DNA of 64,000 bases from Schmidtea polychroa. Its lineage: Eukaryota. The stretch is from NCBI GenBank assembly GCA_044892525.1, contig CM097885.1, forward strand, positions 28,212,001 through 28,276,000, in the 5' to 3' direction. Each line of letters opens with the position of its first letter. Positions within the stretch are counted from its first letter, which is position 1. The translations under genes were made by a program, and so were the position numbers. Positions 1,988 to 48,618 of this stretch are shown piece after piece. The notes beneath the pieces are model-generated. The model did not search any database. It saw only the letters and a list, made by a program, of their open reading frames with translations, and was not told the DNA's origin.

Positions 1988-2645
1988 AGTAGGGTATTGT
2001 GTGGACCCGGGAACAAAGACATATGACGTCACAAAGACATATTAGGTCATTTTTTTAAATTTTTTTTTAAATTTTTTTTTAAATTTTTTTTTATAAATTT
2101 TTTTTTTAATTTATATTACGTTGCGGTATTTTAACATTTATATTACGTTGCGGTATTTTAAAATTTATATTACGTTGCGGTATTTTAAAATTTATTATAT
2201 TTTAATATTTAAATATATTACGTTGCGGTATTTTAAAAACTTATTGATAAAAGTTTAATAAAATAAAATTATTATTACACACACACAATATAGTCTACCC
2301 GACAAAATATTCTGTTCCCCTATGGTCACACACACACACACAATGTATAAAAATATTATTTACACACACGCAACAAGTTAGTGTTCTCATTGATATATTA
2401 ATAATCTATATACTCCGAGTCTATCCGACAAAATATTCTGTTCCCCTATGGTCACACACACACAATGTATAAAAATATTATTTACACACACGCAACAAGT
2501 TAGTGTTCTCATTGATATATTATTAATCTATATACTCCGAGTCTATCCGACAAAATATTCTGTCCCCCTATGGGTACTGCTCACAAGGGTACTGGTCACG
2601 CTCAACAACTCGCAAGGGTATTAATAAACAATGTAATAAAACATA

Positions 2646-2717
<72 letters not shown>

Positions 2718-2810
2718 ATTTCTATCACAAATCATGGTTAACAAAAAACAGTCGAATATTATAAAATTAAGGTATTGTGTTAGCACACACTCGTTATAAT
2801 AATTAGCAAT
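1988..2810 (+). repeat. Mav1 left TIR
   Basis: Reverse complement of 16944-17910; contains ~28-bp TTACGTTGCGGTATTTTAA repeats, ~130-bp repeats and (ATT)n. Confidence 0.93.
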
Positions 2811-2823
2811 GTAATAAAACATA

Positions 2824-2860
<37 letters not shown>

Positions 2861-3129
2861 ATTATTATTATTAATATTATTATTATGGGTACTGCTCACA
2901 AAGGTCACAAAGGTAAAGGTTACAAATGTACTGCTAAAAAATATTCAAGACATTAACAAAGAAATTATACTTTAATATACACTAAAATTTATTAACACAC
3001 TGAGTAAAGGTAACTAACAAAACTTTAACATATTATTATTATTACAATGTATAAAAATTGTTCACAAAGTTACTGTTAAAAATAATCAAGATAATAAAAT
3101 CAATACATTTATTAAATAATTTAAACACA

Positions 3130-6100
3130 TCATCGAAAATAATCATGTCCAAAATAATTATCATCTGCTGGATCATGGAAATCATCTGTATCATCTGCTG
3201 AGATAGCTTCCGTTGAATCTATAAATATATCGGTGTCACCGCCCCTATAATGGCCATATGCCAAACTTTGATTTTTATCCACCCAATTTCGTTTATCATC
3301 TCTACACGTCAAGGCTCTTTTATTATTTTTAATACTAAAAAGTTGGTGATTTTTTGACGTTATTCTAAACTGAGGGACTGTGTATATTTTATCATTTAAA
3401 TAACAATCTAGATACGACTGATGTGTTAGTCCAGTATCTTTCATACTTATCACCTTAGCCTTCATACTTTCCTCATCACCCATCAAACTGTAACATTTAG
3501 GTCTCAAGAACACCCAATCTTTATATAATAACCCTTTATTCTCGTCTTTGAATTTGCCAATGACAGAATCAAGGTTCCTACTATATAAAGGATGATTTGG
3601 GTCATAATTCGAAGTATCTAATAATTGATCTCTAATCATCGCAGGTAAAAGAATGTCAAGACTACAATGTTTAATTTCCAAGAAGAAGGAATCTGTGTCT
3701 CCAGCAACGATATTAATTTCGCAGTTGAATTCGTCGCGATATTTTTGCAACTCTTCATACTGCAGCTGGTACATCCTGAGTTTGGATAAATCAAGTACGG
3801 TTTGACCAATGTAACTAGGTCTATTCAAACACACTATGTCCTTCCTCAATAAAACCGAAATCAAGTCATCATCGATTTTCGTGGATTTACGAAAAGTCGG
3901 TTTCGAACAGAATGTTAATAATCTCTGTGAAGAATTACACAGACGTAAATTAATACGTTTTTTAAGATTTTCAACAGTCTTACCGTAAAGACTGTTGTTT
4001 AATAATTTATAAAAATTTTTATCGAGTTTATTTGTCGACGCTGCTCGTAACGCCGTATTTGTGTTAATATAATTTTTGAAAATTTTATCTTGTTTAAATT
4101 TAATTGCTCTATGTGTTTTTGATATTTTAACACCTAATTTAATAAATATTTGTAGAAGCCTCCAATGAAGAACGTAGTTCCTCTTGGGGCTATGTGTAAG
4201 CAACAGCTTCTCTATTTTCGAACCCGGTACACACATCTTTTCAGCGGCAACGGGAAGATCGTCCAGTTTGTCGTGAATTGACGTCGGTATTTCTAAATCC
4301 ACTTCTATGGTATAACCATAATCAAGCAGATCTAAATCTACCGTTGTGCATTCAACAATTATATTATTTAATAAATTATCATCAGTAACCCATTCAAAGT
4401 CACTGCAAGGTAATGGTTGACTTAAAGCCCAACCGTATAAATTATTTATATCTATGTAAAGCAAAGCGGTATCCGGGTCTGTTTTTACATAATGTTTGTT
4501 TACAAAAGTTAGTCCGCCACGGATACCGCCCTCGAAAAAGTTATACATCTCCATATCGGTGAGGAGCTCAATTGGAGAGTTTAAAGTTAATAAGGCTGAA
4601 TTCCAAGACATACCTGGAATCCCTAAGAAATTTAATGGCTCTAGTCGGTTATGAGCAATGGACTTAGCTCTAAATTGCTGGAAAAAATCGGCTAAAAGGA
4701 AAACATCAAGTTTTAAATAAACCATCATGTAATCGAAAAGTGAAGTACATGAAGTTTCAACCCAAATTCGCTGAGCTGTCTCATATTCAGCAGGAGTCAC
4801 ATCTTTCCAAATAGGTGGTAACTGATGAGTGTTATGTAAAACCTCTAATGAAGTTGCGACATCATAAGGAAAAATTCCCTTTGCAGTTATTATTGTACCC
4901 TGAAATTCTGATTCGGTCAAGGGTAAAGATGATAAAGTTTTGACAGCATTATTTAAAGACTCGCTGACAAATTGATTAGAGTCTATAAATTTAACAGTTA
5001 ATGAGTCAATCCTAGCAAAAAGACTAAGGAATTTCTCGCTGGTTAAAGGAATACAACTAATATTCCATGAATGATATTTTGAAAGGCCAAATTTCAAGAT
5101 ATGATGCAGATCATAACCCTTTAAATTATGAAATACTACAGGAAGGGTATGTCTAATTTGCCTCGACAGATTACAAGTTGTACAAGCGGCACCAAGATAT
5201 AGACCGGTAAAATGATCATGGTCCCTAACTGGACTAACTAAAGGCTTATTGCACAAATAACATGATGTGCTGTTTTCAAACATTAATTGTTGCTCATCTG
5301 TAATTATCATTTTCTTTTGATAATTTTTATAATAATAAGGAGTTACAATATATTTCCCTATCATTTCAATTTCAGTAAGAAATTGATCGACACAATCTAA
5401 ACCGGTGAACGACTTATAAATTTTTACGCCTGTGAAATTATTAATAAAAAGCATACCGGCAGAAATAGGCAGATGACGTTGAAAGTAGCGAGTGTCTTTA
5501 GGTAAGATAGCCTCAAAGTCAGCGTAAATAACAAAGGGAGGAGTAACTGTTTTACTCCAATCAGTAAATTCTAAATATTTATTTTTAGGCAATGTGTACA
5601 AGGTAGTACCAAGCTGATTTTTATCGCAAAGACCCTTATGTCTATTAAAAGCGTCATCATTCTTAAAACCGTTTAAACATCTAGGGCACCACTGACTACA
5701 AATCCTAACAGGAGTGATTGAACTATTCCTACAATTAAGAAATCTATTTAGGTCTGTGATTCCAAGATAATGATAATTATCATTCTTTTCGATTAATAAT
5801 AAATTGATAGGTATGGCTCCTACTATCTTACTCCTATATATTATATCAATAAAGGGATGTTTCATAACTGCATCTTCATCGGAAATGTCAATCAAAGCCT
5901 TTTCGTTATAAGTAAGAACATTAATACTATAACCCGGATTTTGTTGTTCAAATTTACTTATATTTGATAGTTTCATCGGCATATCATTAGGATCAAATTT
6001 AATTTCAGAAAGATTGTAGGAATTAGGGCGATTTCTATATTGCCTATTTATACAGTCATATTTAATAATTGACAAGAAACTATACAAAAAGCAGAAGTGG

Positions 6101-6917
6101 TCATTATTAACTACATTAATGAGACAGCTTAAGTTTCTTAAAGATTTTGGGGTTTCAATAAAACTTCTACCACTTAATCGACTTATTTCAGCAAATTTAG
6201 TAAGAACAAAGCTTATGTATTCTATTTTATTGATAGTCCAATTACTACCTTTCTCATTAATTTTAATTATTTTTTCATTTAAACGAGCAATACCTTCGTC
6301 AATGAATGTATCGCTCCAAACTCGGGCGGAATTCGAGATTACAAAAGATTGTAACTCATCATCTTTTATAAATTCCACCTTTAGACAAAATTGAATTTTA
6401 CATGATTTTAATTTATTTACATATAAATTTAATTTATTTATTAAAATTTCTGGTACAGAGACCGTTTTTAAATCTAAAGACGAAACGTCCATTTTTAATA
6501 TAATATGATTATTATTTAAATCACTGGTGACATCTACGACACCATAACCTATTTGATTAGTATTATTAATACGATTATTATAATAAATATTACTACTACT
6601 ACTACTATTATTATTATTATTATCAATTTCCTCATCACTTATGTTGATTATTTCATCATCATCACTTATTGTGATTACATCAATAACTTTAGATTTTTTA
6701 CTTGGTATTGAATTTATTTTTTCATTATTTTTTCTTTTATTCATATTAATTAGATTATTTATTTGTTCATTTAATTTATTTACTTGATCTTTTAGATTAT
6801 TTATTTCGTTTATATCATTATTATTATTATTGGTGCTGTTAGTATTATTGTTGGTGATATTATTATTATTATTATTGTTGATATTATTATTATTATTATT
6901 ATTATTATTGTTGTTGA

Positions 6918-6954
<37 letters not shown>

Positions 6955-6994
6955 GTTGTTGATATTATTGTTGATATTATTATTATTATTATTA

Positions 6995-7026
<32 letters not shown>

Positions 7027-7855
7027 GTTAACAAACGATTCATATAAGCTATAGAAAAGAGACTTCTTAGAAGGTTTAAATTGTTGGAGATGGAGTCTAT
7101 GCTTATTATAAAATTCCTTATACGTTATAACTTCAATAACCTCACATTTAGGGCATAGGATGTAGGTGACACCGTTATATTTATGACTATAATATCTTTC
7201 CATTATATCATCGCAGTCATTATGATATTGACTATTACAAAAGTTTTGGTATTTCAAACCTATGAAAATATTTTTATCATAAAATGTTTAAAAAATATTA
7301 AGATAATAATCATTTTTAAAGTTTAAGATATTTTTCGTAAGATATTATTCAAAATTATCTTTTAAATAGTATCTTATAAAAAATAATATAAAATATATAT
7401 AATTTAATTCGTTTTCATAAATAATTCAATTCATTTTCATAAATAAATAAATAAGTAAATCTTCTTTTTATGAATAAATCTTCTTTTCAAAATCATCATA
7501 AATAAATAAGTAAATCTTCTTTTCATAAATCATCATAAATAAATAAATAATTCTTTTTCTAAAATAGTATTTATTTTCATAAATAATATATAAAAGTTAT
7601 TAATTATAATGTTCAAAATCATCATAAATAAATAGGTAAATCTTCTTTTCATGAATAAATCTTCTTTTCAAAATCATCATAAATAAATAAGTAAATCTTC
7701 TTTTCATAAATTATCATAAATAAATAAGTAAATCTTCTTTTCATGAATAAATCTTCTTTTCATAAATCTTCCTTTCAAAATCATCATAAATAAATCTTCT
7801 TTTAAAATATCTTCTTTTCATGAAAAAATCTTCTTTTCATAAGTTTCTTCTTTTA

Positions 7856-7906
<51 letters not shown>

Positions 7907-8230
7907 ATTGTTTAAAAAACTTAAAAACTTATAACAATAAATAAAAACTTACATTTTCGTCCTTTCGAAAGAAATTTTCCAGCATCAGCACCAGCAGAAG
8001 TATTTATTACATTTCCATCTAAAAGCATAATAAAAATAATAATGATAATAAGAGTAAACTATTACCATTTATTCTATTCATGTCTACAGCTTGTCCGTCG
8101 ATATTCATTTTAATTTGTTGATTAGTACCTAATAATCATATTAAAAATAATAAAATAATAAAATAATAAATTTACCATTAATTCCTCCAACGATCTTTCC
8201 GTCAACTCTTTGAATATTGTTGTTGTTCAT
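3130..8230 (-). CDS. Protein-primed family B DNA polymerase, spliced (exons 8230-8176, 8128-8066, 8018-7953, 7259-3130)
   Basis: YADFE exonuclease, DINNLYG, KLLNNSLYGK, GDTDS; CYLC..RDHDH..CN endonuclease-VII-like insert; three upstream GT-AG mini-exons join the main ORF in phase 1. Confidence 0.93.
7430..7850. repeat. Minisatellite in the large pPolB intron of Mav1
   Basis: Imperfect repeats of AAATAAGTAAATCTTCTTTTCAT(G/A)AA. Confidence 0.75.
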
Positions 8231-8595
8231 GTTGCTAATAGATTTTTAAAAGTGATGAAAAAATGAAAGTGTAGACTATATAAGAGAGATATTACAGGTT
8301 TTATTAACCGACCAATGAAAATAGAGATAGGATAGGAAAAGATACTACATGTTTGTTTATACAAACCATGACGAAATAATGACCTTTACATGTCTTTATT
8401 ACTCAGTGCTTTGTTACTTTGCACTGTGCATGCACTGAACATGTAATAGTATTACATAATATTTTTAAACATAAAATTTTAAACATAAAATAATACAATA
8501 ATAAAATAATAAAACAAATAATAATAATATTTAACAAATAATAATAATATTTAACAAATAATTAAAATAGTCAACAAATAAAAATCATACATTTA

Positions 8596-9007
8596 TTAAC
8601 CATCAAATTTTTTATACAACAACCATGCCAAACAGTGTTGACCACATGTTTGAGTCAATGGATTTTGAAACATAGTTTTATTATATACAATAGGTTTCCC
8701 AATTGTTTGAAGTTTTGATATCAACAAAGCAGGATAATAGAAACCCATAGGATCGAATACGAATATATTACTAGGTTTCACATATATAGCTATCCAATGT
8801 TCTCCACCAAGATGAGACGAATGAGTATTGATGATTATGGCTTGATTATTGCTCAAATAAGGAATTTTATCAAGAGGAAAAACTCCTACAAATTCATTTC
8901 CTAATATTTGTTTTCCAATTCGATTAACCTGAACAGAACTACTTTAATAAAATTAAACAGTATCAAAAAACTTACTCCATGACAACTTTTTGTGTTTCTG
9001 TATACAT
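8596..9007 (-). CDS. Adenain-like (C5) cysteine maturation protease, intron 8939-8975
   Basis: GEHW, FDPMG, QNPLTQTCGQHC; splicing gives ...MDSVQVNRIG...; start at 9007 or 8980. Confidence 0.88.
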
Positions 9008-10226
9008 TTATACTAGCACGGTTCTATTTGCAGTAATTTGAACTTCATTTTCAAATACTCCATATATTATAACATGTACCGGTTCAGTAATAGCTTTTGC
9101 AAACTTAATATCCAGTCGTAAATTCCCGTTTTGTGGTAGTTGACTCTGATTTAAATCAAAATCAGGGGCTAAAACAAATGTAAAAAATGGATATTTGCTT
9201 TTAAATTCTTCTAGAGTTATTCCACAATTCAAGTTTTTATCTAAGTAACCCAGATTTCTAACAATACTCTGCATATATGTCGCACAGTAATTATCGCTTT
9301 CGAAATCTTGAGTATATGTTTCTCTATAATCAGTATTTTTCGACAAAGTCAATGAAGTAACACCAAAATTTTTGAAAATTGAGCTGGAAGCAGTATATGA
9401 TCCATTATATTGCGTTTCATTTTGAAATGTTACCAGAATAAAATTAGGCATTCTTCTGTCACCAAATATTTGTTCTTTATAGAATGATGAAGCACCTTTA
9501 GCAATAGCAAATTGTACAATTTCCTTTGTTTTTAAAGGATAAATTGCATGTTTTGAATTAAGACCCAATTGATGACCAGCTAATACTGACGGGTCTACTC
9601 GAACTCTTCTCACCAATAATTTTGCATCAACTAATTGGCATATTGGTGCACCAGTTGCACTAGTAAGAGATAATGCAGAATCGGACCTTTTCAATCTAAT
9701 GTGTACATTAACTCCTGGTAGCAAATATTTCGGTTGATCCATAAAATCGAGTTGTAATGATGAGCACATAGTGAATGATTTTGAGCCTTTAACCCACTTT
9801 TTTCTTTCATCATCTGTTGCTGCATAACCCATAGGTGTAAGACAGGTATTTTTAGTATCAGAATTGTAATTTAAAATAGTTTCTATCAAAGCCTTGTGAA
9901 TGAATGTATTATTTCCGCCCTCAATCTTAATATTATTAAATCCCAAGACTGCATCTTTAAACAGAGTATGAAACATGAAATTGTTCGGTATTACATCTGC
10001 ATTGGCATCCAAAACTTTTCTATCTTTATCTACAACCTTGATCTGGACAGTCAATAAAGTATCGTTATAAATATTCAGTTTGCGAACCATTAATATAAAA
10101 CTCGATATCATTTCTACTATCAGTAATTGAATTCATAGGAAAAACTTCCTCAAAGGCCCCAAATTCGATTACCGCTTGAGGCGATGGTCTATCAAATATA
10201 CATAATTCAGATTTACCACAAATCAT
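9008..10226 (-). pseudogene. Major capsid protein (double jelly-roll), frameshifted near 10066
   Basis: Near-identical to Mav2 MCP; GAATATTTATAACGAT versus GAATATTTAGATTTGAACGAT is a net 5-nt loss giving an immediate stop. Confidence 0.85.
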
Positions 10227-10585
10227 TTTGCAAATATAGTTCCATGTCCTTTCATTCGTTTGTTTATACGCGATATTCCATGTCCTTTACGTTTTGGAGC
10301 TGGGGCTGGGGGCGTATCTTTTTGAAACATACCAGCAGCTCCAGGTAGAACCTTCCCTAACTCAGCTAAATCATTTGTTTTTAGGGATGGTAATATTTTC
10401 TGTTCATTCATAATAACATCTTTTGCAGTTTTCATACCAAAACTACCGATACGTTTAAGAATAGGAAGTGCAAATCTCCCTATTGTTTTTAACCAACCTG
10501 ATCCGTACTGTTTACCAATAAAATATGGTAATTCACCGCCAGATTGGATATCACTATACATACTAATAATATCGGAATTAGCCAT
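10223..10585 (-). CDS. Small Polinton virion protein, adenovirus pVI-like (amphipathic helix after putative adenain sites)
   Basis: IQSGG and QYGSG followed by WLKTIGRFALPILKRIG; basic C-terminus; ATGA overlap with MCP. Confidence 0.7.
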   Translation of the reverse strand: MANSDIISMYSDIQSGGELPYFIGKQYGSGWLKTIGRFALPILKRIGSFGMKTAKDVIMNEQKILPSLKTNDLAELGKVLPGAAGMFQKDTPPAPAPKRKGHGISRINKRMKGHGTIFAK

Positions 10586-11590
10586 CTACTTTACGAAAAT
10601 GTAGTGTCAAATGAGTTTTTGAGTCTTTTGGGAAGTTTATAAGTTTTCCACTATCGTCACGAATATTTATTTCTATATTGTTTATACATGAGCTTGCTAT
10701 TGGTAAATACATGGGATTATCGATATTTATATTGACAACTTCATCATGTTCATATTTTCCAATCCATACCGATTTCAAAAGAGGAACACTGGAATCACCA
10801 ACAATTATAGGCTCAATAATATTAGTATATATGAACATTTGTTGATGATGTTCAAGTATTCTTGGTTTACGTATACCAGCCGATTTTTCCCGATATTGCT
10901 GCTTCTCTAATCCAAGTGTATTTGTCAAATTTTTATCAAATGTAACTTCGCAAATATCATCATTCAAACTGAAGGTAAACATCAAATCTTTCACAATGTC
11001 CAAACTTTTAAATATGTGTGAACAATTGTACTTTAAATATTTAAGTAACACATCAAGTTTATCAATATATAATTCGTCAGCAAAGGTGAATGATTCTTCA
11101 ATTTCATTATTATACGACACTGATATTTTGATTTCTTCTCTCATTACACTGTTTGCTTCAAATAGATTAAAGCGTAATAAATATTCTGTTTCCATAACTT
11201 CATTTTTCAACTTATTGCAACCCAATCGTTTGGCATCTTCAATATATTCGAATGTTATTGTAAATGGTTTAAAATCACAACTGATATTTAATCCATCCTT
11301 GTAAAACATATAGCAGTGCTGATCTAATAGTTGATTTGGAATATGATATGTTTTATCATAATTACTGATAATAAAGATACCGCTACATGTTTTCATAGCA
11401 TTCCTTTTGAAATCAATCTTACATTGACTATAAAATGGGAATGTATTGTACACGAATGTAAAATCTTGCAGTGCAACTTCCCAGTCCCCATTTAAAGAAA
11501 TCGGATTCTGGAGATTGACCATGAATTTACTGGCTTGATTATCTGGATGAATAAGCGGGCAACTATTGCTTGGTAAAATAGTATAAAAAT

Positions 11591-12781
<1,191 letters not shown>

Positions 12782-12842
12782 TACAACAAGAAGATTTAAT
12801 ATTAAATTTAATGTCTGGTAATGAAGGATTAGCACCCATTGT

Positions 12843-13339
12843 TTATGATCGACTTCCTATTATTCCACCTAATAATGATATTGCTAAAGGTATCAATGCA
12901 CCGATAAATCCCCCTTGTTGTTTATATATAAAATTTTTCTCATTTGTTGACGATTTTTATTATTTACTAATGATAGCAAAGGTTTCCTATGTTTACTCAA
13001 TAATTGCTTTTTAGATTTACTGATTTTAATCTTGCCTTTGACTACTTTAAGTATAATATCGAGTAAATCATCGACAACATAATTTGGAAAAGATTGCAAA
13101 ATACTGTTTCTTTTCATACTGGGTGCTTTTAACAATGTATTGAAAAACGGGAAACTCCGATGATTTTTAACAACTTTTACTTTCTTAGTGGTTTTACTTT
13201 TAGTTTTAGGTTTAGGATTTTTCGAAATGAGATTCATTGCAGGAAAATTTTCTGTAATAAGTTCTTTAGATGGAGTATAACTAGTTGTTGGTGGAACTTT
13301 TGGTTGTTTTTTACTCGATATCCTTGTTTTTGAAAACAT
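12843..13339 (-). pseudogene. Basic core protein, adenovirus pX/Mu-like, frameshifted
   Basis: Homolog of 42445-42978; a 2-nt insertion near 12930 shifts the QQGGFIGALIPLAISLLGG tail out of frame. Confidence 0.75.
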
Positions 13340-13352
13340 GATTTATGTGTTT

Positions 13353-13991
13353 TCAAATTTGTTTTAAACTTTGTTTATATACCATGGCACCTTTTGGGTT
13401 GAAAATATCTGTTTTTACCCGTATATCATCAGGACATTGTTGTGTGAAATCGAGAAATATATACCCATGAGGTATTTTCGTAGCATCTTGAAATGCACTG
13501 ATAAGAAAATTACGGTTATTAGGGTATGCTTGTCGTCCAAGAAAATCGATGACGGTTGCATCTCTAGGATTCTTGAAAATAACTAGATATTGTACATTTA
13601 AATTACGTGTTCGATGTGCACCACCTTGATGAAATAGATTTTGTGTTATGAAAATAACTGTTACACCAACATGTCTGCTGATTTTTGTGAATAAATTATT
13701 AAAATCCTTTTCTTTATTGGCTTCTTGATACAAATTATCGATAATGATGACATCATCTTTCTTCAAACGACTTGACCAGTTTTTATCAAAACCCTTTACT
13801 ATTTTCATGTTTTTCAATTGACAGAAACTTGATTGTGTCAATCCATGTTCTTCATCGGCGCCCCTATGCCAATAAATATTGTTGAATTTTGTTTTGAACA
13901 AATTAGATTTTAGTAATTTACAAACAAATAATGTTTTTCCACTACCACTCGGACCAACGATTTGGTATACTGCATCATTTCTTAATTCCAT
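13353..13991 (-). CDS. A32/FtsK-like genome packaging ATPase
   Basis: Walker A GPSGSGKT; Walker B IIIDNL (IIIDDL in Mav2); SRH and ITQN motifs. Confidence 0.92.
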   Translation of the reverse strand: MELRNDAVYQIVGPSGSGKTLFVCKLLKSNLFKTKFNNIYWHRGADEEHGLTQSSFCQLKNMKIVKGFDKNWSSRLKKDDVIIIDNLYQEANKEKDFNNLFTKISRHVGVTVIFITQNLFHQGGAHRTRNLNVQYLVIFKNPRDATVIDFLGRQAYPNNRNFLISAFQDATKIPHGYIFLDFTQQCPDDIRVKTDIFNPKGAMVYKQSLKQI

Positions 13992-14096
13992 TTTTTTAAA
14001 TTTAAACTATATAATTATTGTTTATATTGATAATTTAAATGAACTCCGTTTTAAAATAACTATATATAACAGAGTTTTTATAATTATTTCATTAAA

Positions 14097-14561
14097 ATGC
14101 TTTCAAATATAAATTACAGGGCAAAAGCTGATGTATCAAAAATGGTATTTCCAATGGGGAAACCACAACAACTTATCAATAGAAGTAAAAAATATCCAAT
14201 AATATATTTCAAAACTGGTAAATGTAGAATTATGGGGTGTAAGGAAATAATCAAAGCTAGTGAATATAATGTTTATGATTTAGAAATACAATCGATAACC
14301 GTAACTTCCGATATAGGTTTTTCTTGTAATTTAAATAATTTGGCTAAATTAATACCATGCTCTTACGAACCAGAATTATTTCCAGCTTTGAGATATATAA
14401 AATATAACCCTATGTGTGTAAATATATTCGCTAGCGGTAAGATAGTAATTCTTGGAATAAAAAATATTGATTACAAATGTATAGTTGATAATATCATATC
14501 TGAAATTAAATCAATAATGGAAGGAAAAGAATTTTTAGATTTTTTATTATCACTTAATTAA
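14097..14561 (+). CDS. TATA-binding protein (TBP)-like protein
   Basis: YEPELFPAL...IFASGKIVILG matches TBP repeat 2; YFKTGKCRIMGCK matches a degenerate repeat 1. Confidence 0.88.
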   Translation: MLSNINYRAKADVSKMVFPMGKPQQLINRSKKYPIIYFKTGKCRIMGCKEIIKASEYNVYDLEIQSITVTSDIGFSCNLNNLAKLIPCSYEPELFPALRYIKYNPMCVNIFASGKIVILGIKNIDYKCIVDNIISEIKSIMEGKEFLDFLLSLN

Positions 14562-14682
14562 TTATTTATCATTGCAAATTCAATGCAATTAAAATGCATG
14601 ATTCTGATTGGTCAAAATCTAATTGGCTGATGATTATTTATAACAAAATGTTTTCGGTTTAGTTGTCATTTATTCAACAAAA

Positions 14683-15092
14683 ATGTACAACATACAAAGT
14701 TCCGCAATCACCTCAATGAAAGAGCATGCAAATTATGGTAATTTCAAATTTTTATTATTACATTAATATATATATTTTTTACAGATGAATATCAATCAAT
14801 TATCCTGCAAAGATTATGCTTCTATTATCCAGAATTAAATGAAATTCTACAAGATAGAGATCCAGCTATCATTCCGGATTTGGTATACAACCAAACTCGA
14901 ATCTGGATATTCGATATAATAAACACCTTTCTATGGGATATCAAGATAGGAAGGGGGATGAAAGAAATGAAAGCAGAGGCTCCTTGCATTTTCGGATGTA
15001 GCTGTTGCAATTTCCGTTATCAACAATATGTTGAATGGTGTTTGGTGAAGACTCTGAGAAATCATCACTCGAGTCAGATTGTATCAAAATAA
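14683..15092 (+). CDS. Unknown conserved protein with CxxGCSCC motif; intron 14738-14784
   Basis: In-frame splicing; homolog with the same intron in Mav2 (44232-44649). Confidence 0.75.
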
Positions 15093-15365
15093 TTTTTTTT
15101 TTTTTTTTTTTTTTTATGTTGAATTGTTTTGTTTTTGTAAATCGAAATAATAGAAATAATATAAGTAATAATAGTAATATTAGAAATAATAATAATAAAA
15201 AACAATATTTATAATAAAAACATTAATGCAACATTAATGCAAATGACATGCAATTTAAACAAAGACATGCAATTTAAACAAAGACATACAGCAATCTGAT
15301 TGGTTGATAAACAATAGTCATAGGTATAAAAACCCTGTACCATTTCATTTTAATCATTATTTACG

Positions 15366-15785
15366 ATGACAAAGAAAATTTCAAGCACTGAAAAGCCAAA
15401 AGTTGTTCCAGAACTTGTACAACCTGTTCAAATGTTCCACAACTATAAAATGTATTTTTTAAAAGAAGAAATCAATATAAAATTGGTGTCACCGATCAAG
15501 CTAATTCCAACTAAATTTCAATTCTTATCCGGCACGCTTTCAATGTTAGATGTTAAATCTATTGATGAGGTTTTCAAACGGTTGAATACGAATCTATCTT
15601 GTAATCAACATGCCTGGTTCAACAACAGATATGCAAGATTTTATGATTCATTTGATGAAATCGGTTTCAAAGAAAACGAAAATTGGTATATTGCAATTGC
15701 AATCCAAGGATATAAAGTTGATAATAATGATGTGTATTCTCCAATTTGGAAAATTATGTCTGCTAGACTTTCACAACTATTTTAA
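15366..15785 (+). CDS. Unknown conserved protein (possible OB-fold ssDNA-binding protein)
   Basis: Highly conserved with 45072-45482; upstream ATTGG and TATAAAAA; function is a guess. Confidence 0.75.
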   Translation: MTKKISSTEKPKVVPELVQPVQMFHNYKMYFLKEEINIKLVSPIKLIPTKFQFLSGTLSMLDVKSIDEVFKRLNTNLSCNQHAWFNNRYARFYDSFDEIGFKENENWYIAIAIQGYKVDNNDVYSPIWKIMSARLSQLF

Positions 15786-15918
15786 TGTTATATTTAATAA
15801 ATGTATTAGTCATATTTGTTTTTTCTCTTTATTAATTGCAACATTAATGCAAATGACATGCAAATTTAACAAAGAAAATCTATAAACAAACTTATAATAT
15901 AGTTTTAAAGTGTTATTA

Positions 15919-16253
15919 ATGACTACAGAAAAAGGTTAACATGATTAATTAAATACCGAATTATTTATTATTTAGAATTATTAATCAACTTTTTGTTGGA
16001 AAAGTTAGCAGAAATAGCTGGTGTAAAAATTGAGGATATATTATCTATTACAAATGCCTTAAATATCGGCTGGGTAGCTGAGAGTCAAGATTCAGGATTT
16101 GACAATCATGAAGAAACTCAAGAAATTGATGACGAAATCTATGAACCTATAGAGGAACCTAAAGATAATATTACGAATGATTGTATTGATCATGTCGTTG
16201 AAAATATAATGAAATGTGGAGATGACGATTGCGAATGTGTTAATAAATTTTAA
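15919..16253 (+). CDS. Unknown acidic protein with Cys-rich C-terminus; intron 15935-15975
   Basis: MTTEK|ELLINFLLEK after splicing; conserved in Mav2. Confidence 0.7.
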
Positions 16254-16297
16254 AATTGAATTATTTTCATTTAAATATACTATTAAAAACAATAACA

Positions 16298-16826
16298 TTA
16301 ATTTTTATTCATATATCTACAGAAAATATACATTATAACAACTCCAGTTGTAAGTTTTATATAGTTTTTCATTTTTCTTTTGATTTCATCAGTTTCTTTA
16401 AAATTGCAGGCCAGTTTATTTAATACACCCCATCCGCCATTGGCTTCTATCCATGGGGTAAACTTGGACTTGATTATCTAGAAATGAATATTATTAAAAT
16501 ATAGATTATAAAAGAAATCTTACTTCTAAAGACCAATGATAATAATGTTCTGAATCATGTTGACCTTTTGCAATGATTATCTTCATGTAGGTGAATCCTA
16601 CAATTATCCTTGTCCATTTCATGTCTTCATCGAAAAGACACTGAAATATTCTATTGAAGTAATACTTCTTGGTTTCCAGGGATTCCATCTCCATCATCTG
16701 CTGATAATCGATATGTTCACCTTCAATGATTTGTTCGGTTCGATTGATCAGGAAATTGAGGCTGTCGACTATATTCGCGGTGACAATTCCGTTTAGAACA
16801 TTTTCCATAAAATTTGGTTGCGACAT
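16298..16826 (-). CDS. Bcl-2 family protein (160 aa); intron 16478-16523
   Basis: BH1-like LFDEDMKWTRIIVGF, BH2 WIEANGGW in exon 2, C-terminal hydrophobic anchor. Confidence 0.85.
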
Positions 16827-16943
16827 TTCTAAAATAATTTAAAATATAATGTTTTTATTTATACTAATACCATATGATTTTGATTGGTTGATAGACTATA
16901 AATGTAAAAGAAAGGTTTTGATTTGATACACCATAAAAACTAT

Positions 16944-17910
<967 letters not shown>

Positions 17911-28580: not shown

Positions 28581-29717
28581 AGTAGATGGATTGGGCACCG
28601 CTGGCACAGGGCACCGCTAGCACAGTACCCCCCCCGTCGGTAAGATTTTCAAAAATATTCTAAGTCTAAAAGTACATTTTTTTTTCAAGGTCAAATTTAA
28701 ACAAAGACATATGACTCATCAAGGTCATTGAAACAAAGACCATGAGTCATCCTATGACTCATCAAGGTCATTTTCAAGGTCATATGACTCATAATATGAC
28801 TCATCAAGGTCAAAAAAATTTTCTCAAGGTCATTTAAACAAAGACCATGACTCATCAAGGTCATTTTCAAGGTCATATGACTCATAGTATGACTCATTTG
28901 ACCTTGAATTTTTTTTTCAAGGCCATATGACTCATCCTATGACTCATCAAGGTCATTGAAACAAAGACCATGACTCATAGTATGACTCATTTGACCTTGA
29001 AAAATTTTTTTCAAGGTCATATGACTCATCCTATGACTCATCAAGGTCATTTCCAAGGTCATATGACTCGTAGTATGACTCATTTGACCTTGAAAATTTT
29101 TTTCAAGGTCATATGACTCATCCTATGACTCATCAAGGTCATTTTCAAGGTCATATGACTCATAGTATGACTCATTTGACCTTGAAAAATTTTTTTCAAG
29201 GTCATATGACTCATCCTATGACTCATCAAGGTCATTTTCAAGGTCATATGACTCATAGTATGACTCATTTGACCTTGAAAATTTTTTCAAGGTCATATGA
29301 CTCACCCTATGACTCATCAAGGTCATTTTCAAGGTCATATGACTCATGGTATGACTCATTTGGCCTTGAAAAATTTTTTTCAAGGTCATATGTCTCATCC
29401 TATGACTCATCAAGGTCATTCTCAAGGTCATATGACTCATCCGATGAGTCATCAAAATTTTCAAGGACATTTTCAAGGTCATCTGAGTCATCCTATGACT
29501 CATCAAGGACATTTTCAAGGTCACGTGACTCATCCAAGGTCATTCCCAAGGTCATATGAGTCATCGCGATGACTCATCAAGGTCATATTATTATTTTTAA
29601 AAATACTATTATTTTATTTTTAATTTTTTCAAAGTTCCCGCCAACGAAAATTAATAATCGATAGCTCATTTTAAAGCTTAATCCAAGACCTTTCGAATGA
29701 GCTATATATGTTGTTAC

Positions 29718-29751
<34 letters not shown>

Positions 29752-29768
29752 ATTATTATTATTATTAA

Positions 29769-29814
<46 letters not shown>

Positions 29815-29984
29815 CTATATACTCCGAGTCTATATACTCCTAGTCTATCCGACAAAATATTTTGTCCCCCTATGGGTAATGCTCACAAGGGTACTGGTCA
29901 CGCTCAACAAATCAACAAATCAACAAAACATACATTTATTTAAACAATAAAATAATGTAAAATTAACAAAGGTAAACTAAATAT
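28581..29984 (+). repeat. Mav2 left TIR with TGACTCA/TCAAGGTCA tandem array
   Basis: Reverse complement of 47150-48618. Confidence 0.93.
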
Positions 29985-30613
29985 ATATAGTATGATATTC
30001 ATTAATCAGTGTTGAACAGGCTTGACACTTGCGAACATTCTTCTCATGACACTTAGAACAAACAATTACGTGACCACACGGTAAATACAAAACCGAAACT
30101 CGATTTTCTTTACAAATTGAACAAGTTAAATATCTTTTCTTAACATCTTTCAATTTTTTCGTTAGCTTATTTTCAATCAAATCGGCTTTCGCTATCCATT
30201 CATAAATCAATCTACTATATCCAGGTTTCAACCTTAAAAACATACAACTCCAAAAGTATTCATTCAGTGAATCGTTGTTTACTGCTATTTTTTCTAAGTA
30301 CATTAAATAACAAGATAACTTTAAAATGGATTTCTCATAATTAAATAAATCAAACAAATATTCAATAGAGGAATGTTTGAAAATTTTTAAAATATTTATG
30401 AGTTGCTTATCACTGTAAGTATCATGATTATTTATAAAATCTTCAAGTGTATTGTTAAAAAATGTCAATGAAATTTCAGAATAGGCTGGACTTAATTTTT
30501 CCTTATTTCTAGTAGGACTTCCTTGCTATAAATGACATATAAAAAAAAAATTGCCAAAATAATAAAGTTACCAAATGTGTTACACATTCATCGGTTTTAT
30601 TTGTATAAATCAT
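29977..30613 (-). CDS. IAP/MDM2-type C-terminal RING protein (putative E3 ligase, 196 aa); intron 30526-30571
   Basis: CSIC...LPCGHVIVCSKC....CQAC...IYI; upstream exon in phase 0; TATAAAT and CCAAT upstream. Confidence 0.82.
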
Positions 30614-30779
30614 TATTAATAACTAAATTACTTTTGTTTTTACATTTATAAAAATTGTGATAACCAATCAAAATAGAGCTTTCAAAATGTAACCATCAAA
30701 TGTATAACAATAATAAGCATGACTAGTACCCTTTGCAACCTGTTTAAAGTTTTATTATTATTATTATTATTATTATTAA

Positions 30780-30918
<139 letters not shown>

Positions 30919-30946
30919 ATTATTATTATTAATATTATTTCATTGA

Positions 30947-31160
30947 TATAGCTGCAGACTATATATAAAAATATAGCTGCATGCCCACTGCAGACTATAT
31001 ATAAAAATATAGCTGCATGCCCACTGCAGACTATATATAAAAAATATAGCTGCATGCCCACTGCAGACTATATATAAAAAAATATAGCCGCATGCCCACT
31101 GCAGACTATATATAAAAAACATATAGCTGCATGCTCACTGCAGACTATATATAAAAAACA
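30947..31160. repeat. ~35-bp palindromic tandem repeat
   Basis: ATATAGCTGCATGCCCACTGCAGACTATAT plus A-run, about five copies. Confidence 0.9.
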
Positions 31161-31392
31161 TATAAAAGTCACCATTAAATACTTATAAAATAAACTTAAA
31201 AATTATAATAAAACAAACTTAAAAATTCGAAAAATATCTGATTACAAAATTTTATTGAATATATACAAATTTTAAATCAATATATTAATACAAGTTTTTA
31301 TACATTTTTTTTTTTATAAATCAAAATAAAAAGTTTTTTTTCAATATATACAAGTTTTTTGATCAAAAGTTTCTGTACAATTCTGAGTTGCC

Positions 31393-34300
31393 CTATTGAT
31401 CTTCGTCCCATTCGCTGTCGTCAAAACTGGGACTTGGAGCTGCACTGAATTCCTCATCATATTCGCTTAATTCGTCAACTCCTAAATAATGCCCAAATGC
31501 GTAACTTAAGTTTTTTCCTAGCCACGCGCGCTTATCATCATTATTACTTAGGGCAATTTTCGAATTTTTAAAAGTAAAAAGTTGGTGATTTCTAGTACCT
31601 ATTCTAGTCTGCGGTACAGAAATCACCTGATTTGAATGAAAGCAATTTAGATATGATTCGTGATTTATTGATGTCCCTGGTAATTTAACCCCTTTCGCTT
31701 TTACCGTTTCCTTACTACCTAAAAGACTATAACATTTAGGGCGTAAGAAAACCCATTCAGAATACCCTAATCCCTTGCTCTCATCTTTAAACTTCCCGAT
31801 GACCGAGTCAAGGTTCCTACTATACAAGGGGTGGGTTGGATCGTAATTTGACGTATCCAATAAATTATCAGAGATCATCTGAGGTAATAAAGTTGTTAAT
31901 TTTAAATTTTTTATTTCCAAAAAGAAACTGTCGGTATCACCGGCAATAATATTTATGATACATTTATATTGGCGTCTGTACTTCTCCAAATCAATATATT
32001 GGAGCTGGTACATCCGCAGTTTAGACAGATCTAGTACTGTTTGACCAATGTAGCTAGGTCTGTCTAAACAAATCACATCTTTTTCCAAATGTGCCGCAAT
32101 CAGATCTTGATCGATTCTTATGGACTTTCTGAAAGTCGGCTTTGAGGAGTATACTATCATCTTTTCGGATGAATTACACAACCTCAAATTCATTCTTTTT
32201 TTCAAATTTTCAACCGATTTACCGTAAAGAGAGTTATTATACAATTTAAACAAGTCCCTATATATCTCGCTAGTAGACTGAGATCGTAAAGTGGTGTTGG
32301 TGTCTATGTAGGATTTAAAGATAGGTCCTTGTTTAAACTTTATACACCTATGAATATTTACAACAACCGCACCTAATTCTATATACAATTTGAGAAGCCT
32401 CCAATGAAGAACATAGTTCCTCTTTGGCCAATGCGTAAGCATAAGCTTCTCAACTTTTGAATTAGGCGGGCACAACTTTTCCGGCGCAAGCGGAAAATCA
32501 TTCAAAAAGTCATGCACACATTCCGGAATATCGATATCGACCTCCATAGTATACCCATATGGAAGGTTATCAATATCCGTGTTCATACATTCAAGTAAAA
32601 CATCATTCAAGTTATTATTCACCCAAGAAAAATCACCATACGGAAGATTTTGGCTAAGAGCCCAACCATACAGATTATTTATATCAATGTACAATAATTC
32701 TGTATCATCTGAAGTAGCCGTGTAATGTTTGTTAACAAATGTTAACCCACCCCGGATACCTCCCTCATAGAAATTATACATTTCCATGTCCTGCAGAAGT
32801 TCTATTGGTTCCGTTAATGTCATAAGCGCTGAGGCCCATGACATACCGGGAATCCCGTAGAAATTAAGAGGATCCAGACCATTGTAAGCAATTGCCTTAC
32901 CGCGGAATTGCTGAAAATAATCTGCGAGGAGGTATACGTCCAATTTTAGGTAGATTAACATATAATCTAACAAATTATTACAGTTATGCTGACTCCAAAT
33001 TAGTTGAGCCTCAGCGTACTGATCTTCCGTAACATCAGACCAAATAGGAGGTAATTCTAAAGTCGATTCAAGAACATCTAAAGAAGTAGCGAAATTATAT
33101 GGAAAGATACCTTTAGAGTGAATCATCGACCCTTGAAAGACAGACGAAGTCAAAGGAAAAGTAGTTAAGGTTTTCACAGCTTTTGCTAAAGAACAATTAA
33201 CAAATTGCATGCTGTCAATAAAACGAACAGGCAATTTGTTAATATATGCAATTAAAGATATAAATTTTTCTGTAGAGGTAGGTATAATATTAAGTTCCCA
33301 AAGGGGAAAATCACTGAGACCATGTTTTAAAATATGGTGGAGGTCATAGCCTCGTAAATTATGAAAGACAACAGGTAACAATTTATTAATCCTGCGAGAG
33401 ACATTGCATTTCCTACATGCCGCTCCGACATATCTACCTGTAAAATGGCAATGATCTCTCACAGGATTAATAATAGATTTTTTACACAAATAACAAATAG
33501 TGGAAGATCGAAAGGCACGCTCCTGAGCAAAAGACAAAGTAGACATACCTTTACGACCTTCAAGATCATAATATGGCAGGACAATTGTGACAGCAATTTC
33601 CTCCACTTTCCTCAAAAAATCCAAAATACAATTAGGTCCAAAAAAATAATAATAAAATTTAGTGTGTGTATAATTATTAATTAATAAAAGACCTGCTGAT
33701 ATGGGTAAATGTATTTGATGATATGTTTCATGTTCTGGTAAAACCGATTCAAAATCGGCATAAATTACGAAGGGAGGTGTAACTGTTTTTGCGTAATCTG
33801 TGAATAATAAATCTTTATTTTTAGGAAGTGTATACAAAGTTGTGCCAGTCTGATTTTTACAGCATAGAGCAACATGCTGATCGAAAGCATTCTTATATCT
33901 AAAGCCATTTAAACAATGTGGGCACCAGTTACACCTTATTTGAACATTTACATTTTCATTTTCATGACAATTCATTAATTTGTCCAAGTCTGTCACGGCT
34001 GTATAATGATATTTATCTTTATTACTCAAAAGTAATAAATAAATTGGTCTACCGTCTATAACCTTGGAGCGATGTACTATATTAAGATGAGGGTGGTGAG
34101 CTACATAATCCTCAGAAATATCTAAATCAGAACTGGCTGGATTATAAGACAGAACGTTTATGCTCAAGTTTAAATCTCTATTTTTTCTTTCAAATTTGGG
34201 AATGTTGCATAGCCTCATCGGGCAATCAGTGTCTTCGTCATAATTTAATAGAGGTAAAAATTCTATATATTTGCCGGCTCTTTGGTGATTACGACCTATT

Positions 34301-35698
34301 TCTTCTCTTTTTAAAAGTGCAAGAATGCTATACAAGAAGCACTTATGGTCGTTGTTTTTAACGTTAATTATTGCATGTTTTAATTTTAAAGCCGATGGGG
34401 TTTTTATATAGCTATGTCCGGATAATCTACTAACGGGTGCGTATTTCGTTAAAATAAAATCTATTTCTAAAATATTCACTACTCGCCACCCGCTTCCTAA
34501 ATAGGTGAATTGCTCAATCTTTTCATTTAATTTGCTCACCCCCTCGTTTATAAAGTTTGATGTAAAAACTTGAGCATTGTTTGAAAAATAATTATCCCGG
34601 ATCTCCCCATCTTTTTCAAATTTAATTAAAATTGTGAATTGTATTTTTACATTGCCCATCTTTTCTATTTCCTCTATTAATCTATCTTCAATTTTTGATG
34701 TTAGGGCTATTTTAACCAGGTTTTCATTTCTTATATTAAATTTTAATGTTTTACGTGATCCATTCAAATCGGATTCAACAACTGGTTCAAACAAAGAGCC
34801 GCCTATTTGAAATATGTTGAAAGACGTTGAAGCTACACATTCATCATTGATGACTATCACTTCTTGTTGTGTAATGGGTGATTGTTGTGTAATGGGTGCT
34901 TGTTGTGTAAACGATGTTGAAGCTACACATTCATCTTTGCTGATGACTATCACTTCAGGTCGCGATAATTTATTAGGAATGCAATTTTTAATTAAACCAG
35001 CAGGTCTTTTAATAGAATCTTTTTTAATATTTATAATATCTTTTTTAATAATATTTATAGTATCTTTTTTAATAGCATCTTTTTTAATAGAATCTGTTTT
35101 TTCTTTTATAATATTTTTTTTAATATTTTTTAAATCTTTTTTAATATCTTTTTTTATATCTTTTTTAATAGTATTTTTTGGTAAATTTTTTTGTAATTTT
35201 TTATTTATTTTTTTAAATAAAACATTTTTTGATATCGAAAATTGCCCTAAGTGACAATGATGTTTATTAAAAAATTCCCTATATTTTACTTTTTCGCTCG
35301 TTACACATTTGGGGCATATAAAAAAGTTGAGCGAATTAAACGTCTTTTTGTAGTATTTTCTCATTGTGCGATGACATTTATCGCTATGTCCATTTGCAGC
35401 TTGGCAATAATTTGGGTATAGTTTACCTGTTAAATAATAAAATTAAAGTTTTATTTTTTTTTTTCTAATTGTTATTAATTGTTACATCTATAAGGATTTA
35501 TCATCATTTGTTATTTAATTCAAATGAACTATATAACAAATGATGATAAATCCTTATAGAAAATAGGTTAATATATTCGAGAGAATATTAGAGAGATTTT
35601 AGTAGATAGGTCAGATTATTATATGAATATGTTAAATATTAGAGAGATTTTAGTAGATAGGTCAGATTATTATATGAATATTAGACGAGTCAGATTAA

Positions 35699-35751
<53 letters not shown>

Positions 35752-36153
35752 TGAAGAGAAGTAGCTGCATGCCCACTGCAGACTACTATGTAGCTACATG
35801 CTTACTGTAGACTACATTATTATTATTAATATTATTAATATTATTATTATTATTATATTGAAGAGAAGTAGCTGCATGCCCACTGCAGACTACTATGTAG
35901 CTACATGCTTACTGTAGACTACATTATTATTATTAATATTATTATTATTATTATTATATTGAAGAGAAGTAGCTGCATGCCCACTGCAGACTACTATGTA
36001 GCTACATGCTTACTGTAGACTACATTATTATTATTAATATTATTAATATTATTATTATTATATTGAAGAGAAGTAGCTGCATGCCCACTGCAGACTACTA
36101 TGTAGCTACATGCTTACTGTAGACTACATTATTATTATTATTAATATTATTAA

Positions 36154-36202
<49 letters not shown>

Positions 36203-37741
36203 TTAACTATTGTAGATGCACATTGCAAACTACAAGGATTTATTTTATAACTATAATTTTGTAATCACTTTTTTAAATACTTTGATTATATTTCAAAAAA
36301 CATAGTATTTTCTTCATAATTTTCGTCATATTTTCATCATAATTTTGGTCATATTTTCATCATAATTTTGGTCATAATTTTGGTCATAAATCATTTTCAT
36401 TTTGTTCATAAATTTTCGTCATAATTTGGGCATAAATCATCATAATTTGGGCATAAATCATTTTCTTCATAATTTGGGCCTAAATCATCATAATTTGGGC
36501 ATAAATCATCATAATTTGGGCATAAATCATAAATCATCATAATTTGGGCATAAATCATTTTCTTCATAATTTGGGCATAAATCATCATAATTTGGGCATA
36601 AATCATCATAATTTGAGCATAAATTCATAATTCATTTTCTTCATAAGTTTGATCATAAGGTTCATCAAAATATTTAAGAAATTTTCATCAAAAATTAAAG
36701 AAATTTTCATCAAAATATTTAAAAAAAAGTGATTACGAAATTTAAATATCAAAAATATATATAAAATAAATAAATCTTACATTCTGATTCCATATCGGAA
36801 TCTGAGTCTTCAGCAACCGAGCTGAGGGTATTATCATCAATTGTTACATTTTCCATAAAATCTTCATCGATGGAATCTGAGTCTTCAGCAACCGAACTGA
36901 GGGCATTATCATCAATTGTTACATTTTCCATAATTTCTTCTTCATCGATGTCGACATTGAAATTAAACGCTAAAAAATAAAATTTTTAAAAATAAATTAC
37001 TAAAGTAAATAAATTTACTTTTTTCTTTGATAACCTTGGTTTGCCCAACATCAATAACTGGGGCATCCGATTGTCCAAGAAAAATAATATCTTCATCACT
37101 ATTTTCATTAACATTTTCTGTAATGCAAATTAATTTAATAAAAATTAAAATAAATTTACTTTTTTCTTTGAAAACATAGTTGTGCCCAACATCATTAACT
37201 GGGGCATCCGATTGTCCAAGAAAAATAATATCTTCATCACTATTTTCATTAACATTTTCTGTAATGCAAATTAATTTAATAAAAATTAAAATAAATTTAC
37301 TTTTTTCTTTGAAAACATAGTTGTGCCCAACATCATTAACTGGGGCATCCGATTGTCCAAGAAAAATAATATCTTCATCACTATTTTCATTAACATTTTC
37401 TGTAATGCAAATTAATTTAATAAAAATTAAAATAAATTTACTTTTTTCTTTGAAAACATAGTTGTGCCCAACATCATTAACTGGGGCATCCGATTGTCCA
37501 AGAAAAATAATATCTTCATCACTATTTTCATTAACATTTTCTGTAATGCAAATTAATTTAATAAAAATTAAAATATTAAATTTACCAAATATATTTTCCA
37601 CATTTAAAATGGCATCGTTTTCTGTAACTTCGTACCAGTCGAATGGTTCTAAAATAAAAGATAATAAAAATCGAATAAAAATAATAATAATTTACCGTTA
37701 GTCAAAAGACTTCTCAATACTCGATTCTTGTTGGTTTCCAT
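31393..37741 (-). CDS. Protein-primed family B DNA polymerase, 8 exons (37741-37696, 37648-37586, 37540-37442, 37399-37301, 37258-37160, 37117-37019, 36969-36781, 35426-31393)
   Basis: YADFE, DINNLYG, NNSLYGK, GDTDS, KAKG; all upstream exons have GT-AG boundaries and keep phase 1. Confidence 0.9.
35750..36130. repeat. ~100-bp tandem repeat in the pPolB intron
   Basis: Four copies containing GTAGCTGCATGCCCACTGCAGACTAC and a degenerate duplicate. Confidence 0.9.
36310..36650. repeat. ~21-bp minisatellite in the pPolB intron
   Basis: CATAATTTGGGCATAAATCAT repeats. Confidence 0.85.
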
Positions 37742-38084
37742 TGATTTCAAATAGATTTTCGAATTGATTTTCAAAATTTCAAAATAATTGTGACAAATTT
37801 TAGATTTGTCAATGTTTATAAAGAGAATGAATATTTTCCTGTCCCAGCCAATGAGAATATAGACACACACACACATATACATTGAATATTTTACTCTCTC
37901 AACCAATCACACGCATGCATGTATGTAATGTAAATCAGTCAGAATTACATGTGACTGCCTTTGTTAGTCATGCCTTTGTTAACTTGCACTGTGCATGCCT
38001 CAGGCAAAGGCAGTCTTTATGTTACAAATAATAATATTTATTAGAATAATAATAAAATTAATTAAAAATAATAATATTTTTCAC

Positions 38085-38139
<55 letters not shown>

Positions 38140-38216
38140 TTAATAATATTAATAATAACACAACAACAAAGGAAAGGATACATTTATTAAACATCAAATT
38201 TATTAAACATTTTTCT

Positions 38217-41225: not shown

Positions 41226-42383
<1,158 letters not shown>

Positions 42384-42444
42384 TACAACAAGAAGATTTA
42401 AAATTAAATTTAATGTCGGGCAATGAAGGATTAGCACCCATTGT

Positions 42445-42978: not shown

Positions 42979-42996
42979 TATTATTCATAGAGGTTT

Positions 42997-47149: not shown

Positions 47150-48618
<1,469 letters not shown>

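Follow-up and report, generated by a model that had tools for sequence, protein, structure and literature searches.

Bcl-2 homologs have already been reported in adintoviruses, the animal Maverick/Polinton viruses, by Starrett et al. 2021, both in the text and in Fig. S2, where the label Bcl2 occurs three times around the Beta-polymerase panel (PMC8502044). The accessible text of that paper gives no description of these genes and does not contain the string 'splic'; they are likened to the genes reported here by label only. A viral Bcl-2 gene split into two exons by a single intron, whose product has a membrane domain at its C-terminus, the arrangement considered here, is known from turkey herpesvirus, and some predictors missed the full ORF of this gene, vNr-13 (PMC7199394). 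Its product shares 64% identity with chicken Nr-13, and it has a canonical NWGR motif and the host exon structure (PMC7199394). Adenovirus E1B-19K, a Bcl-2-type inhibitor of cell death with a divergent BH1, comes from a related lineage of viruses. In planarians, the Burro retrotransposons are mobile elements that carry a BCL2-like motif, like the elements described below, although their Bcl-2 domain is part of a retroelement polyprotein rather than a free spliced gene (PMC6431247). A term search of the accessible text of a 2024 review of viral Bcl-2 proteins (PMC11209288) returned no mention of Polintons, adintoviruses or introns, and 'Bcl' does not occur in PMC11071296. In the literature searched, which left out most subscription papers, neither a spliced Maverick Bcl-2 structure nor a WTR motif was found in print. 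Bcl-2 cargo in adintoviruses and two-exon viral Bcl-2 genes are already known; what is unusual in the present case is a fixed change in BH1.

The window analysed here is a 64,000-nt stretch of the Schmidtea polychroa genome (assembly GCA_044892525.1, contig CM097885.1, forward-strand positions 28,212,001 to 28,276,000). It holds two Maverick/Polinton elements, with a Bcl-2-like gene near the right end of each.

1988..17910, no strand assigned: Maverick/Polinton element A; AGTAG ends, long terminal inverted repeats, 6-bp target duplication TTTATT
28581..48618, no strand assigned: Maverick/Polinton element B; AGTAG ends, 1.4-kb terminal inverted repeats, 6-bp target duplication CTCAAT

The element ends and target duplications point to insertions recent enough to retain these marks. 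Pfam searches returned an rve integrase (E 1.2e-6) and a Pox_A32 ATPase (E 1.9e-6) in element A and an adenain protease (Peptidase_C5, E 5e-6) in element B, each with a homolog in the other element by DNA match. ORFs of 1323-1357 aa, putative protein-primed family B polymerases from motifs seen by eye, gave no Pfam, PHROG or PDB polymerase match, an absence that would fit the divergent Beta class. Candidate jelly-roll major and minor capsid genes were placed by size and position and matched no family. The elements resemble the adintoviruses of Starrett et al. (PMC8502044) in having an rve integrase, a packaging ATPase, adenain, inverted repeats, a putative polymerase and Bcl2 cargo.

The two Bcl-2-like genes had been placed by the sequence-only reading at 16298..16826 and 46075-46589, and both sets of coordinates proved exact.

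16524..16826, minus strand: copy A exon 1; 303 nt, 101 codons; predicted helices 1-6, including BH1
16478..16523, minus strand: copy A predicted intron; 46 nt, GT..AG, phase 0, 15% GC
16298..16477, minus strand: copy A exon 2; 59 codons plus stop; BH2 and C-terminal hydrophobic tail
16605..16619, minus strand: BH1-like motif KWTRI of copy A, aligned to NWGRI/NWGRV of A1 and Bak; Thr for the family Gly, Arg kept
16430..16453, minus strand: BH2 motif WIEANGGW of copy A, from PDB sequence matches of exon 2
16319..16354, minus strand: short predicted tail anchor of copy A; 12 uncharged residues between Lys/Arg
16857..16887, minus strand: candidate promoter of copy A; CCAAT at 16887-16883, TATAAAT at 16863-16857; presumed function
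46293..46589, minus strand: copy B exon 1; 99 codons; 63% identity to A
46249..46292, minus strand: copy B predicted intron; 44 nt, GT..AG, phase 0
46075..46248, minus strand: copy B exon 2; 57 codons plus stop; 67% identity to A

The copy A gene runs from an ATG at 16826 to a stop at 16298, with a predicted product of 160 aa, a GTAAG donor at 16523 and a TTTCTAG acceptor that ends at 16478; the predicted product of copy B has 156 aa, and its donor, GTAATA, is weaker than that of copy A. Both copies contain KWTRI and WIEANGGW. The earlier description of an exon 1 that leads over 44-46 nt to a BH2-bearing exon 2 holds, the gap having GT..AG ends and the two exons forming one frame, as does the claim that the gene is intact in both elements despite their divergence, the exons being open, 63% and 67% identical and under purifying selection. 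Only exon 2 is hidden from the ORF track, as had been said of the whole gene, since exon 1 is visible there as an ORF of 106 aa (A) or 103 aa (B). The proposed tail anchor is present in both copies as 12 uncharged residues with basic flanks; it is short, and its best 19-residue hydropathy is 0.9-1.3. Around and upstream of the candidate promoter, 130 nt are 87-100% identical between A and B, against about 70% in the coding part. The gene is not preceded by TATAAAC, the word found 5' of several structural genes, and might accordingly be expressed early. A trans-spliced leader at the start codon was dropped as a possibility, as the AG just before the ATG in copy A is absent in copy B.

Assignment to the Bcl-2 family draws on several weak but concordant sequence matches rather than on a confident model. 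The exons were scanned apart, and every Pfam match falls under the curated PF00452 (Bcl-2) cut-off of 31.4 bits: the family is the top match of exon 1 in copy A (profile positions 7-66, E 8e-4, 20.3 bits) and in copy B (E 0.03, 15.3 bits), and also of exon 2 in copy B (positions 86-100, E 0.13-0.26, 12.3-13.3 bits), so that exon 1 and then exon 2 come in profile order. Exon 2 of copy A gave no Pfam match. All nine available exon-1 sequences (A, B and seven relatives) match PF00452 at E<=1. Against the PDB, Bcl-2-family proteins account for 8 of the 9 sequence matches of exon 1 and 13 of the 21 matches of an exon-1 profile (best E 0.037), including two schistosome Bcl-2 chains and five Bak core fragments, and for 45/45 and 55/56 of the weak exon-2 matches (best E 0.075-0.12). 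The best matches are pro-survival proteins, A1/Bfl-1 for exon 1 and Bcl-xL for exon 2. PDB matches to falcipain, metalloelastase and acetyltransferase were set aside as chance, none extending to exon 2, and PHROGs held no match for the gene. Language-model features gave 0.92 to a Bcl-2 cluster, with 209 of 256 features shared and all ten best family matches in agreement, at a recognition value of 2243 that lies below the 2300 mark and makes the match weak; in the second-best cluster, 11% of the members are Poxv_Bcl-2-like.

The arrangement of the motifs agrees with these matches. The BH1 Trp and Arg, where helix 5 begins, are invariant (9/9 sequences), and a BH2 W-x4-GGW lies downstream of BH1 in the joined frame, where its presence depends on the predicted splice. 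The proposed joint places the exon-1 Trp 12 residues before the BH2 Trp, and the Trp-to-BH2-Trp spacing in Bcl-xL is likewise 12 residues. BH1 and BH2 are in register with cellular A1/Bfl-1, Bcl-xL, Bak and schistosome Bcl-2, whereas the BH1-BH2 stretch is about 5 residues shorter than in cellular Bcl-2 proteins by Pfam positions, and Thr replaces Gly. The end of GGW lies 16 codons downstream of the predicted element intron; in animal Bcl-2 genes, the conserved intron immediately follows GGW.

Structure prediction was less informative. Exon-1 models, covering half a domain and built alone or with eight relatives, were all-helical and poor (pLDDT 49 and 60), and four fold searches with them returned no significant match, to Bcl-2 or otherwise; Bcl-2 chains appeared in one search only at E>4 (ranks 4, 9, 15 and 18), and none was among 50 VIA rows, where the best Z, 7.2, was to unrelated small bundles. 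When the exon-1 and exon-2 products were co-folded as two chains, the score was 0.35 against 0.01 for the best control, with at least 91% contact agreement between runs and a partner pLDDT of at least 68, which lends weak support to their packing. Among reference pairs, 51 of 78 solved ones and 2 of 108 mismatched ones attained the mark used, but passes at 0.60 or under comprise only 5 of the 78 solved pairs and all 4 passing mismatches; furthermore, the two parts of one known fold can pass through their similarity to solved structures, and similarity to Bcl-2 structures may drive the present score. Taken with the motif spacing and the ordered matches, the spliced product very probably belongs to the Bcl-2 family, and a two-exon Bcl-2-family gene in Maverick/adintovirus-type elements, as had been proposed, is the best reading.

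Precedent for Bcl-2 genes in other adintoviruses, suggested previously, is real (Starrett et al. 2021, PMC8502044), and the parallel with E1B-19K survives as a functional analogy, not as a demonstrated kinship. The BH2 GGW kept in the element protein is absent from human adenoviruses (PMC7199394), the element gene has no Pfam E1B-19K match, and the cluster containing E1B-19K is a weak language-model feature match (0.86); E1B-19K and the element Bcl-2 are likely separate captures. Compared with vNr-13, the element protein differs in its WTR motif and in that no close cellular relative was found.

The replacement of Gly by Thr in BH1, also pointed out in the sequence-only reading, is real and fixed, with WTR in 9/9 sequences from two lineages that are 61-67% identical. 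Human adenovirus and murine herpesvirus members depart from NWGR too (PMC7199394), and the BH1 Gly is typical rather than strictly defining for the family. In viral Bcl-2s, the BH1 Arg forms the hallmark salt bridge, also where the motif is altered (PMC9027176, PMC7719400). Both the Gly and the Arg are reported to matter, the Gly being important for family interactions (PMC9027176), and the SPGR of orf virus keeps the two (PMC7719400). In Bcl-xL, G138A impairs Bax binding while BAD binding is kept (bioRxiv 10.64898/2026.06.23.733989). An altered partner choice is therefore a likely consequence of the fixed Thr, on analogy with these proteins.

On balance, we feel that the gene probably encodes a pro-survival viral Bcl-2 that is compact, anchored by its tail and altered in its choice of partners. 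Transcription would start from the CCAAT/TATA promoter, the host spliceosome would remove the 44-46-nt intron to give a Bcl-2-family protein of 156-160 residues, and the short predicted tail would anchor this protein in the mitochondrial or ER membrane. There it would bind BH3 helices of host death proteins and hold back those of the Bax/Bak type while the element copies itself; the kept BH1 Arg would still pair with the BH3 aspartate, and the Thr at the Gly position would narrow the groove and change its binding partners. The pro-survival direction follows from what viral Bcl-2s do, from the compact, A1/Bfl-1-like size and from the missing BH3 core L-x3-G-D, the Bax/Bak-type effector mark, which neither copy shows in its exon 1.

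The Thr at this position could, by the same analogy, abolish the very Bax/Bak binding that a pro-survival mechanism needs, and the chief alternative, if an unlikely one, is that the spliced product has the Bcl-2 fold and is not a canonical BH3 receptor, its groove closed or retuned by the Thr. It might then serve as a selective decoy for BH3-only proteins, or act in autophagy or innate signalling, like some poxvirus proteins with a Bcl-2 fold. WTR in every sequence of both lineages speaks for this, as do the loss of Bax binding with retention of BAD binding in Bcl-xL G138A, the Poxv_Bcl-2-like share of the second feature cluster, and the description of vaccinia N1 as an inhibitor of both signalling and apoptosis; on the other side, the BH1 Trp and Arg and the entire BH2 are kept as in death-regulating members, and the tail is kept as well. 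We also hold it possible, but doubtful, that the element lineage has a Bcl-2 subfamily of its own, with a rebuilt WTR groove that chooses its partners unlike any characterised viral Bcl-2 and an intron, off the usual Bcl-2 intron site, gained inside the element together with those of the protease, integrase and acidic genes; if so, viral death control and particle maturation would both depend on host micro-intron splicing.

The pro-survival reading requires that the gap be spliced. Near the end of exon 1 there are 15 GT..AG pairs 30-80 nt apart in copy A and 26 in copy B, of which only pairs with the proposed donor bring BH2 into frame (3/15 and 4/26), the proposed acceptor being the nearest among these frame-restoring pairs; exon 2 has 3-7 stops in its other two frames. 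The gaps contain 11-15% GC against 29-36% in the exons, and their lengths of 46 and 44 nt (3n+1 and 3n+2) leave both exons open in A and B. Both exons are under purifying selection between the copies, with dN/dS of 0.15 for exon 1 (bootstrap 95% interval of pN/pS 0.22-0.46) and 0.41 for exon 2 (0.32-0.90). Among the seven database relatives, 53 of 101 columns are invariant up to Glu101, the last exon-1 codon, past which the proteins diverge into unrelated tails of 3-13 residues. The first tail residue is Val, a GTN codon, in 6/7; that of P0001 is Gly, which a phase-0 donor does not account for. The tail of P0002, ending FR-stop, is what translation through a 38-nt intron, different in sequence, would give on entering exon 2 at the same start, a reading drawn from the protein sequence only. 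In related contigs, no exon indel occurs among the 12 listed of 33 indels and one lies inside the intron, where a 1-nt insertion (16481) is found in 16 contigs of 3 runs. Similar GT..AG gaps are present in the protease, integrase and small acidic genes of both elements. A host gene outside the elements served as a control for intron size:

61246..61661, minus strand: host HMGB gene, predicted introns at 61661-61618 (44 nt) and 61287-61246 (42 nt)

The first of these HMGB introns falls inside HMG box A, and both are similar in size to the predicted Bcl-2 intron. The intron-length peak in Schmidtea mediterranea is 45-85 nt (PMC13594981), which puts the 42-46-nt introns seen here at its low edge.

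Because the gap lengths differ by 2 nt while the exons stay open and selected, conservation ends at the donor, and host introns measure 42 and 44 nt, we consider it highly likely, from these comparative signals, that the gap is a spliced intron. Were it left unspliced, exon 1 would be made as a protein of 103-106 aa, with exon 2 a separate product or a remnant of a decaying split gene. No intron joint appears among the 15 listed of 61 joints, which come from contigs of guessed or unknown type in four runs, none recorded as RNA, and are neutral on splicing; one contig, also of unknown type, is continuous over 16215-16535, and the database entries are all exon-1 read-throughs, made by bacterial-style gene calls. 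Exon 2, however, has no start codon before its BH2 motif, evolves under purifying selection and supplies the later part of the Pfam profile in the right order, and the gap lengths differ by a number that is not a multiple of three and match host introns in size, all of which makes an unspliced gene quite improbable.

Slightly less probable still is a pro-death Bak/Bax-like pore former that would release particles or kill cells losing the element. The Bak core fragments among the PDB matches of the exon-1 profile (5/21) would agree with such a role, and other adintoviruses have a gene labelled as gasdermin-like, a cytolytic type (PMC8502044); against this, neither copy has a BH3 core motif, the best matches are to pro-survival A1/Bfl-1 and Bcl-xL, and the characterised viral Bcl-2s in the cited papers, as far as their accessible text goes, are pro-survival. 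The empty fold searches and the lack of any match above a curated threshold might suggest a helical viral protein of some other family whose motifs arose by chance; this is very improbable, as the two exons independently match one family, in order, in Pfam, PDB and feature comparisons.

Relatives of the Bcl-2-like gene were found within the element family only. A profile search of 1.8 billion representatives returned P0001 alone; searches for longer proteins gave 0/40 candidates with exon 2 and 0/3843 with exon 1, and pattern matches were confirmed in 0/300 viral and 0/592 metagenome contigs. No cellular or viral relative outside the element family emerged from the profile and longer-protein searches, so no tree against host Bcl-2 was possible. 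The nine exon-1 sequences fall into two groups, one resembling A (81-98% identity to A) and one resembling B (82-86% identity to B), with 61-70% identity between groups. Synonymous distances between A and B are 1.7 for Bcl-2 exon 1, 1.6 for TBP and 2.6 for the polymerase, far above the 0.17-0.35 of the capsid, penton-like and ATPase genes, and the two Bcl-2 versions would thus predate the shared structural module. This suggests that elements have exchanged modules.

Between A and B, the intron and the initial 60 nt of exon 2 agree more closely than the remainder, with 39/43 intron letters shared and an intron score of 66 against a shuffled maximum of 56 and 24-44 for four other introns. The two introns, 16478-16523 and 46249-46292, have an identical 20-nt core that occurs nowhere else in the window, although exon 1 is near saturation at synonymous sites. 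Either a conversion tract or constraint on a very short intron may account for the likeness.

These genes add a concrete, selection-tested example to what has been a one-line report of adintovirus Bcl-2 genes, and suggest that host cell death is a real pressure on these elements, which fits an active-virus life. Current views are not overturned by this finding of Bcl-2 cargo. ORF-based annotation shortens such cargo, since 7/7 database entries end in the intron, and the fixed Gly-to-Thr change offers a natural test of the importance of the BH1 glycine. Planarian Polintons are reported to be released from silencing during differentiation (PMC8532177), and in a planarian host an element-borne survival factor could bear on stem-cell turnover.

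Several further features of the elements were observed. The adenain protease has an apparent 5-nt first exon followed by a 37- or 40-nt GT..AG gap in phase 2, at 8975-8939 (minus) and 38599-38560 (minus), and ORF callers missed its start in both elements. An in-frame gap of 177/141 nt in the integrase, 12393-12217 (minus) and 41995-41855 (minus), consists wholly of ATT repeat between a GT and an AG, likely an intron read by ORF callers as poly-isoleucine. Converging on the Bcl-2 gene is a small acidic, Cys-tailed gene with no family match and a 41-nt predicted intron in phase 1, at 15935-15975 (plus) and 45631-45671 (plus). Both elements carry a short TBP-like gene, 14097-14561 (plus) and 43723-44160 (plus), with Pfam E 1e-15 and 63% identity. 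Only element B has a RING-finger gene at its left end (29977-30303, minus; IAP-like RING, E 6e-10) and a gene lying head to head with Bcl-2 (46697-47194, plus) that combines a signal-peptide-like start, a coiled coil and a hydrophobic end. Compared with B, element A has a break close to the 5' end of its presumed major capsid frame (near 10070, minus), while the Bcl-2 gene of A is open.

Over 13300-16960, 27,631 contigs of a single run match, with many variants, and the element family is very diverse; summed depth was lower over the Bcl-2 gene than over the ATPase, and the Bcl-2 gene may be present in a subset of copies or may only be more diverged. Outside the elements, two intronless protein-kinase genes of 47% identity lie at 1011-1817 (plus), where the gene adjoins element A on the left, and at 53393-54238 (plus), possibly members of a family that is mobile or has expanded. 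Remnants of a third Maverick polymerase gene, decayed and in opposite orientation, occupy 22590-24142 (plus), and a Tc5/pogo-type transposase fragment with CENP-B and HTH domains is found at 57247-57801 (minus).
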